Shown: positions 1 to 438 of the stretch, one piece after another
Numbering within the stretch: position 1 is the stretch's first letter
How the letters are laid out: the number at the start of each line of letters is the position of its first letter
Assembly: GCF_003334255.1 (NCBI RefSeq)
Contig: NZ_QOWU01000240.1
DNA from: Escherichia coli
GTDB lineage: Bacteria > Pseudomonadota > Gammaproteobacteria > Enterobacterales > Enterobacteriaceae
DNA length: 438 nt
Reading direction: 5' to 3' (one strand)
The notes under the pieces: generated by a model
What the model was told of the DNA's origin: nothing
Databases searched by the model: none
What the model saw: only the letters and a program-made list of their open reading frames with translations
Translations under genes and position numbers: made by a program

Positions 1-114
1 CCCACCACGGATATCCGTAAGGACAGATGCAGCAAGTGCATGCGCGGGTGTGAACTGCGCAGGAATGTCGGCAATTTTGGCGGTTTCCTTTCCATCAATA
101 AACTTTCGCAGTAA
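1..114 (+). CDS. L: Minor tail protein L (gpL-like), 3' end; 5'-partial, continues upstream of the window
   Basis: Frame 1 is open from base 1 to TAA at 112..114 and translates to PTTDIRKDRCSKCMRGCELRRNVGNFGGFLSINKLSQ*. It lies immediately upstream of, and on the same strand as, an unmistakable gpK homolog, matching the conserved lambdoid gene order L then K. It contains the Cys-rich motif expected for the gpL C-terminal domain. Not in the ORF track because it lacks a start codon inside the window. Confidence 0.78.
   Translation, partial: PTTDIRKDRCSKCMRGCELRRNVGNFGGFLSINKLSQ
28..51 (+). other. Cys-rich C-x2-C-x3-C motif in the gpL C-terminal domain (putative Fe-S cluster ligands)
   Basis: tgc(28..30) agc aag tgc(37..39) atg cgc ggg tgt(49..51) encodes CSKCMRGC. 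Lambda gpL-family proteins are reported to coordinate an iron-sulfur cluster through conserved cysteines in the C-terminal domain. Three Cys are visible here; a fourth ligand would lie upstream, outside the window. Confidence 0.55.
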
Positions 115-124
115 ATCCTGTTTT

Positions 125-438
125 ATGACACAGACTGAATCAGCGATTCTGGCGCATGCCCGGCGGTGTGCGCCTGCGGAGTCGTGCGGCTTCGTGATAA
201 GCACGCCGGAGGGGGAGCGGTATATCCCTTGTGTGAATATTTCCGCAGAGCCGGAGGCGTATTTTCGTATCGCACCGGAAGACTGGCTGCGGGCAGAGAT
301 GCAGGGGGAGATTGTGGCACTGGTCCACAGTCATCCCGGTGGTCTGCCCTGGCTGAGCGAGGCTGACCGGCGGCTGCAGATAAAAAGCGCACTGCCCTGG
401 TGGCTGGTCAGCCGGGGTGACATTCACAAATTCCGCTG
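125..438 (+). CDS. K: Tail (tip) assembly protein K (gpK-like), N-terminal JAB/MPN+ domain; 3'-partial, continues downstream of the window
   Basis: ATG at 125..127, frame 2, with no stop through the window end (104 full codons plus 2 nt). Translation: MTQTESAILAHARRCAPAESCGFVISTPEGERYIPCVNISAEPEAYFRIAPEDWLRAEMQGEIVALVHSHPGGLPWLSEADRRLQIKSALPWWLVSRGDIHKFR. I recognise this as a close homolog of phage lambda gpK from its N-terminus (MTQTESAILAHARRCAP…) and from the HSHPGGLPWLSEADRRL JAMM motif. Not in the ORF track because there is no stop codon in the window. Confidence 0.93.
   Translation, partial: MTQTESAILAHARRCAPAESCGFVISTPEGERYIPCVNISAEPEAYFRIAPEDWLRAEMQGEIVALVHSHPGGLPWLSEADRRLQIKSALPWWLVSRGDIHKFR
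179..190 (+). other. JAMM/MPN+ N-terminal catalytic motif E-x-C-G (Glu19-Ser-Cys-Gly22 of K)
   Basis: Codons gag(179..181) tcg tgc ggc(188..190) encode ESCG, followed by F-V. This matches the conserved E-x-x-G-[LF] element that supplies the catalytic Glu in MPN+/JAB domains. The assignment of the Glu is by motif position, not by structure. Confidence 0.6.
326..367 (+). other. JAMM zinc-binding motif H-x-H-x7-S-x2-D (His68, His70, Ser78, Asp81 of K)
   Basis: cac(326..328) agt cat(332..334) … agc(356..358) gag gct gac(365..367) encodes HSHPGGLPWLSEAD. Spacing is exactly H-x-H-x7-S-x2-D, the canonical JAMM/MPN+ metalloisopeptidase signature. Confidence 0.85.

Follow-up and report, generated by a model that had tools for sequence, protein, structure and literature searches.

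Two truncated genes and the junction between them

The stretch of Escherichia coli DNA analysed here, called the window throughout, has 438 nt and a G+C content of 58%, and it carries the end of one phage tail gene and the beginning of the next, both on the + strand. Frame 1 is free of stops up to TAA 112-114 and translates as PTTDIRKDRCSKCMRGCELRRNVGNFGGFLSINKLSQ*, the last 37 residues (196-232) of a gpL-type tail-tip hub protein; this 3' end of gene L, stop included, occupies 1..114 (+). It is followed by an intergenic spacer of 10 nt (115..124, +; ATCCTGTTTT) and then by the 5' part of gene K (125..438, +), which begins at ATG 125 and is still open at the 3' edge after 104 codons and 2 nt. 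The K segment reads MTQTESAIL at its start, contains the motif HSHPGGLPWLSEAD and ends in IHKFR (in full, MTQTESAILAHARRCAPAESCGFVISTPEGERYIPCVNISAEPEAYFRIAPEDWLRAEMQGEIVALVHSHPGGLPWLSEADRRLQIKSALPWWLVSRGDIHKFR). It covers residues 1-104 of 247, that is, essentially the whole of a JAB/MPN+ metalloprotease domain.

The coding character of both frames was assessed on an alignment of 11 DNAs, formed by the window and ten homologous DNAs with 82–98% identity. Most of the variable columns are third codon positions, namely 21 of 33 in L and 42 of 67 in K. Moreover, each homologue with less than 95% DNA identity shows more synonymous than non-synonymous codon changes, in L and K alike, and the two frames are unbroken in all of the aligned homologues except for the reference lambda record. 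Judged from this alignment, the L and K frames are real coding sequence. An earlier sequence-only reading of this DNA had drawn the same two + strand frames, one ending at TAA 112..114 and the other running from ATG 125 off the 3' edge, and it is confirmed in this by the translation and by the third-position variation.

The L fragment, although it has just 37 residues, is recognised by PHROG 18 "minor tail protein" at E=7e-15. TIGR01600 phage_tail_L also picks it up, at E=1e-9, with 37.8 bits that fall below the cut-off of 70.75 only through truncation. The full-length L of E. coli STEC2018-553, the strain with a prophage identical to the window, reaches 365.4 bits with TIGR01600, and it also matches Pfam Phage_tail_L (PF05100; E=2.4e-92) and the lambda gpL structure 8iyk_L in the PDB (E=6e-125). 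Similarity of the L part to lambda gpL (family entries PF05100 and TIGR01600; PDB 8iyk, 8iyl, 8k35, 8xcg and 9e7m) had been anticipated, and it holds over the full length, the lambda and STEC2018-553 proteins both having 232 aa and being 77% identical without a gap. Lambda gpL ends in ...NVGNFGGFLSINKLSQ, as the L of the window does, and both genes lie directly 5' of K. Of the 37 residues encoded in the window, 8 differ from lambda (for example, CMRGCELRR here vs CLSGCKFRN in lambda), and the distance from the L stop to the K ATG is 10 nt in the window vs 5 nt in lambda.

A cysteine cluster of the form C-x2-C-x3-C lies at 28..51 (+), with Cys205 at 28-30, Cys208 at 37-39 and Cys212 at 49-51, and the three codons are unchanged in the 11 aligned DNAs. 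The [4Fe-4S] ligands modelled in the lambda tail structure are Cys173, Cys182, Cys205 and Cys212 of gpL (PMC10721106). Cys173 and Cys182 are found upstream in the full L of STEC2018-553, in which all the ligand cysteines of lambda gpL are conserved. By analogy with lambda, Cys205 and Cys212 of the window are assigned as two of the four ligands.

The start of K deserves some attention. No stop interrupts the K frame between nt 2 and 438; it overlaps the end of L and includes upstream in-frame ATG 65, GTG 50 and TTG 77, so that the open reading frame alone leaves the start undefined; gene callers based on ORFs could over-extend K to ATG 65 or GTG 50. Comparison with homologues sets the start at ATG 125, on four grounds. 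A 5-nt indel in the spacer among the homologues puts the upstream extension out of frame, and in lambda the ORF opens at the equivalent ATG, which is the first start after an upstream stop. In addition, independent annotations of homologous records agree on the site, and the Prok-JAB model of Pfam aligns from residue 3 of the resulting protein.

The spacer varies in length in close relatives, in which it has 10 nt (ATCCTGTTTT or ATCCCGGTTT), 5 nt (ATCCC or ATCCA) or, in a single phage, 4 nt, and none of these variants among the aligned relatives contains a Shine-Dalgarno sequence. In the window itself, neither a Shine-Dalgarno 4-mer nor a favourable duplex with the anti-Shine-Dalgarno sequence was found in the 25 nt 5' of ATG 125. 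One relative ends L with TGA rather than TAA. Given that no Shine-Dalgarno sequence precedes K, we infer that its translation is probably coupled to the termination of L. A scan of both strands of the window gave no promoter, and the Rfam scan (E<=1) gave only two chance-level matches, to an HCV stem-loop (17 bits) and to an lncRNA (8 bits), both far under their gathering scores. A weak terminator-like hairpin at 240-257, within K, was discounted as a feature, as it has six pairs, three of them G-C, and 0.3 such hairpins are expected by chance.

The list of open reading frames that accompanied the DNA contains neither L nor K. The program that makes it leaves out ORFs running off the source sequence, which accounts for the absence of both real genes, and at its default cut-off of 60 aa it yields exactly three ORFs, 123..392(-), 140..427(-) and 166..366(+). 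The sequence-only reading had called these three spurious and the true genes missed, and rightly so, since no PHROG match was found for any of the three, all at least 60 aa long. As a gene, 166..366(+) is rejected by the one to three stops that it gains in the lambda-like phages and one further homologue (six of ten), and 123..392(-) by the loss of its start codon and frame in seven of the ten.

The antisense ORF 140..427(-), of 95 aa, calls for a closer discussion. None of the 11 aligned sequences, the most distant with about 82% DNA identity, has an internal stop in it, and its start is ATG or GTG in ten homologues, vB_EcoS-813R6 having GTA; it might therefore be read as a real gene nested within K. 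However, it runs codon for codon antisense to K and could only be closed by a sense TTA, CTA or TCA. K avoids these three codons, which explains the lack of internal stops, and the sole TCA, at 140, is the stop of the antisense ORF itself. The variable sites track the K frame, the 58% G+C of the window favours long spurious ORFs, no PHROG family matches the ORF, and no promoter-like site was found on either strand of the window; we regard an antisense gene as extremely improbable. From the sequence comparison we conclude that the three listed ORFs are by-products of the K frame. Taken together, the two less conventional possibilities, namely that 140..427(-) encodes a real small protein or that the spacer lacking a Shine-Dalgarno sequence fixes a low K:L ratio by termination-reinitiation, are very improbable, and the evidence favours neither a nested antisense protein nor a spacer-set ratio over a by-product of codon usage together with ordinary coupling in a late operon. 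In a short window, a mechanically produced ORF list can miss both real genes and present artefacts only.

The prophage tail module and its neighbours

The window is 100% identical to positions 352264-352701 of the E. coli STEC2018-553 chromosome (NZ_CP075665.1), within a prophage, and this is the only identical genome among 5426 complete E. coli genomes. The identical region is annotated there as "phage minor tail protein L | C40 family peptidase". Matches to the window are found in 2297 of the 5426 genomes, with a median of two copies and up to 15 per genome, and also in 172 phage records. The best of the latter are 98.4% identical and correspond to Stx1a/Stx2a-converting phages, "PPompW" prophages and phage PhiR5_1; in the 98.4%-identical phages the two genes are annotated "tail tip assembly protein L / K". 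The proposal that the window is the L–K junction of a phage or prophage tail module is well founded on these matches.

Gene order agrees with the assignment. The succession M-L-K-I-J, named for lambda-like siphoviruses when the DNA was first read, is present in lambda (H-M-L-K-I-J-lom) and in PhiR5_1 (Z-U-V-G-T-H-M-L-K-I-J-lom). L lies directly 5' of K in 11 of 13 distant phages, the remaining two records being unannotated. The STEC2018-553 prophage is ordered as capsid, portal, connector, tail tube, chaperones, tape measure, M-like gene, porin, L, K, I, J and fibre genes. Gene I starts there at a GTG that overlaps the K stop, and gpJ comes next; the I protein has a ubiquitin-like Lambda_tail_I domain at residues 2-64 (4.8e-9), behind which come the residues ...PRLAGAGKGG and a hydrophobic stretch rich in Gly. 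With regard to the neighbours that had been predicted on both sides, L-K-I-J is therefore found as expected, whereas M does not adjoin L in this strain, a porin gene being inserted between them. The analysis found no evidence contradicting the identification of the L–K junction, and on sequence grounds the window almost certainly belongs to the tail-tip morphogenesis cassette of a lambda-like E. coli siphovirus prophage.

The inserted gene is a full-length "porin OmpC" gene located between the M-like gene and L (NZ_CP075665.1 350319-351482; 10056-11219 of the fetched region), about 900-2070 nt 5' of the place of the window in STEC2018-553. The M-porin-L arrangement occurs in 93 of the 5426 complete E. 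coli genomes and in none of the records of the phage collection, in which the nearest porins are nmpC of P7 and ompD of JL22, about 73% identical. The porin between M and L may be a moron that remodels the surface of the lysogen.

A different question is whether the element still builds tails. Lambdoid prophages of STEC strains are often defective, and the source of the window could be a decaying prophage in which L and K are intact by sequence and no infectious tails are built at present. The portal gene of STEC2018-553 (858-3280 of the fetched region) is annotated as a frameshifted pseudogene, for which reason this prophage, the sole identical one, may be defective; the porin gene that splits its M–L junction and the multicopy presence of the segment in E. 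coli point the same way. Nevertheless, L and K are full length with every catalytic and ligand residue intact, their substitution pattern is that of purifying selection, and the portal frameshift may stem from faulty assembly of the genome sequence. We think that a defective source is possible though rather unlikely, and it would alter the present use of L and K while leaving the identity of the genes unchanged.

Clusters of F-type tailocins, the flexible phage-tail-like bacteriocins, carry L-, K- and I-like genes too, so the type of element must also be considered. The L of STEC2018-553 matches the F2-pyocin baseplate hub protein (25vf_7) with E=1.7e-39, and the F-pyocin gene PA0639 is a homologue of gpK (bioRxiv 10.64898/2026.02.24.707460), which also counts for a tailocin. 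In STEC2018-553, however, the genes for major capsid, portal, head-tail connector and head closure lie directly upstream in the same orientation, and the closest relatives of the window are complete genomes of Stx-converting and lambdoid phages. Head genes adjoining the tail genes effectively refute a tailocin, to which we assign a next to negligible probability, and the window is treated in what follows as part of a lambda-like prophage.

Gene K and its lambda counterpart

The K fragment matches PHROG 30 "minor tail protein" with E=3e-61. In the full K of STEC2018-553 (247 aa), Pfam recognizes Prok-JAB at residues 3-105 (E=9.7e-16) and NLPC_P60 at residues 111-224 (E=2.1e-13), the second domain lying just downstream of the window. 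The presence of a JAMM motif had been noticed at first reading, and it is both complete in the window (E19, H68, H70, S78 and D81) and unchanged in distant homologues. Glu19, the catalytic glutamate, is encoded at 179..181 (+) in the context P-x-E-x-C-G, and the zinc ligands and catalytic serine are encoded at 326..367 (+) in the motif H68-S69-H70-x7-S78-x2-D81 (HSHPGGLPWLSEAD).

Conservation was followed in an alignment of 15 K proteins with 29–90% identity, assembled from tblastn matches and covering phages of gamma-, beta- and alpha-proteobacteria (host genera Escherichia, Mannheimia, Burkholderia, Ralstonia, Moraxella, Pseudomonas, Klebsiella, Vibrio and Rhizobium). Residues P17, E19, C21, G22, H68, S69, H70, S78 and D81 of the JAB domain and D120, C121, H187, H199 and H200 of the NlpC/P60 domain are the same in all 15. 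The NlpC/P60 domain is a papain-like cysteine peptidase domain, and C121, H187 and H199 are counted among its catalytic residues. Homologues of K were detected by tblastn in 1752 phage records, and in 1724 of these at least 80% of the two-domain protein is covered.

An AF2 model of K built from this 15-sequence alignment has a pLDDT of 88; it replaced an earlier, unusable model made from four near-identical sequences (pLDDT 34). Foldseek relates its N-terminal domain to Pyrococcus JAMM1 (PfJAMM1; 5ld9, and 5lda with the ubiquitin-like SAMP2 bound), Rpn11, AMSH-LP, CSN5 and BRCC36, with E values of 6e-5 to 2e-3 for PfJAMM1, Rpn11, AMSH-LP and CSN5, and its C-terminal domain to MepS/Spr, LytE and clostridial autolysins. 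The predicted N-terminal fold superimposes on PfJAMM1 (5lda) with a TM-score of about 0.64, normalised to PfJAMM1, and an rmsd of 2.9 Å over 108 columns (E=6e-5). We found no solved structure of gpK, the only sequence match in the PDB being the uncharacterised JAB protein 2kks (E=2e-5).

K shares with the JAMM/MPN+ deubiquitinases and desampylases the E...HxHx7Sx2D zinc site, and the NCBIfam model of the Haloferax desampylase matches it below threshold (E=7e-8). The substrates are of ubiquitin fold and Gly-terminated in all cases, for K presumably. On the other hand, sequence identity to these enzymes is about 20%, and the JAB domain of K is fused to NlpC/P60, unlike theirs. According to the literature, those enzymes act on isopeptide conjugates, whereas K presumably acts on a ubiquitin-like domain that is translated in one chain with a structural protein.

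The lambda counterpart, gpK or "TAPK", is much closer when resequenced lambda is considered: it has 247 aa, two domains and the JAMM motif HSHPGGLPWLSEAD, as in STEC2018-553, and in both phages the gene after K is I, whose product has a ubiquitin-like domain. Resequenced lambda K is 89–90% identical to K of the window and STEC2018-553; at 89%, the translation of 125..438 belongs to the gpK family, as had been proposed.

The reference lambda sequence gives a different picture. In NC_001416/J02459, a single G is missing between nt 14266 and 14267, a place homologous to nt 258-259 of the window; the record reads GAGGC-TATTTC where three lambda sequences deposited separately (PV340536, LC730321 and KT232076) and all eight other homologues have GAGGCGTATTT. 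K is split there into a 76-aa ORF from nt 14133 and the annotated K of 199 aa from an internal ATG at nt 14276, so that the missing G is responsible for the 199-aa length of annotated lambda gpK (NP_040598). With the G restored, lambda K has 247 aa from nt 14133 and is 90% identical to K of STEC2018-553. NP_040598 begins at the residue equivalent to 49 of the window K, and hence the canonical entry is without the first 48 residues, the catalytic Glu19 among them. The claim that the K N-terminus could be recognised from lambda thus holds for lambda DNA and resequenced lambda, and fails for the canonical 199-aa reference protein.

A 272-nt query with the G-deleted lambda version has exact matches only in J02459, NC_001416, OR474059 and OR974322, whereas 22 other records match at 99.6% identity over 273 nt. 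The missing G of J02459 may be a sequencing error from 1982 or a mutation specific to the stock. In ev099, vB_EcoS-813R6 and KT232076, K is annotated from internal starts (199-224 aa) with the 247-aa frame intact in the DNA, and such short annotations in phage records apparently propagate that of the lambda reference. At least one review analysed gpK as "199 residues" and reported one peptidase domain (PMC7291167); the use of the 199-aa reference entry, which lacks the JAB N-terminus, explains why a single domain was seen. Our literature search found no paper that states the frameshift in the lambda reference K.

Tail-tip assembly and meaning of the locus

The mechanism in which these genes take part has already been published. 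[quoted passage not shown] In the lambda virion, gpK was undetected by mass spectrometry, and only residues 135-223 of gpI are seen in the tip, forming a plug in its lumen (PMC10721106). [quoted passage not shown] Our literature search found no primary paper on this cleavage, which is known from the conference summary.

Applied to the window, this mechanism would run as follows. L encodes the trimeric hub protein of the tail tip, and the 37 C-terminal residues in the window would be part of the iron-sulfur domain of this protein. Ribosomes coming directly from the L stop codon would probably translate K, a two-domain assembly enzyme that, following the literature, would be absent from the finished virion. 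The JAB/MPN+ domain of K would be a zinc isopeptidase acting in the manner of a deubiquitinase, and it would remove the N-terminal ubiquitin-like domain of gpI after gpI docks in the nascent tip. After such a cleavage, the plug domain at the C-terminus of gpI would stay behind in the mature tip, and the order of assembly would be enforced in this way. Gene identities, architecture, catalytic motifs, predicted fold and synteny come from the present analysis, and the Fe-S ligands, the absence from the virion and the gpI cleavage from the literature; the coupling of K to L is the sole step that we infer in addition to the published mechanism.

The gene families, the synteny and the published mechanism of K all agree with the first judgement of the locus as a known system and not a novel one. 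In our opinion, it is a textbook tail module of phage-lambda type with a published mechanism, and nothing in the window is new. The practical value of the analysis lies in the lambda reference itself, as a single missing G has deprived the 199-aa gpK entries that derive from it of the catalytic N-terminus of the JAB domain.
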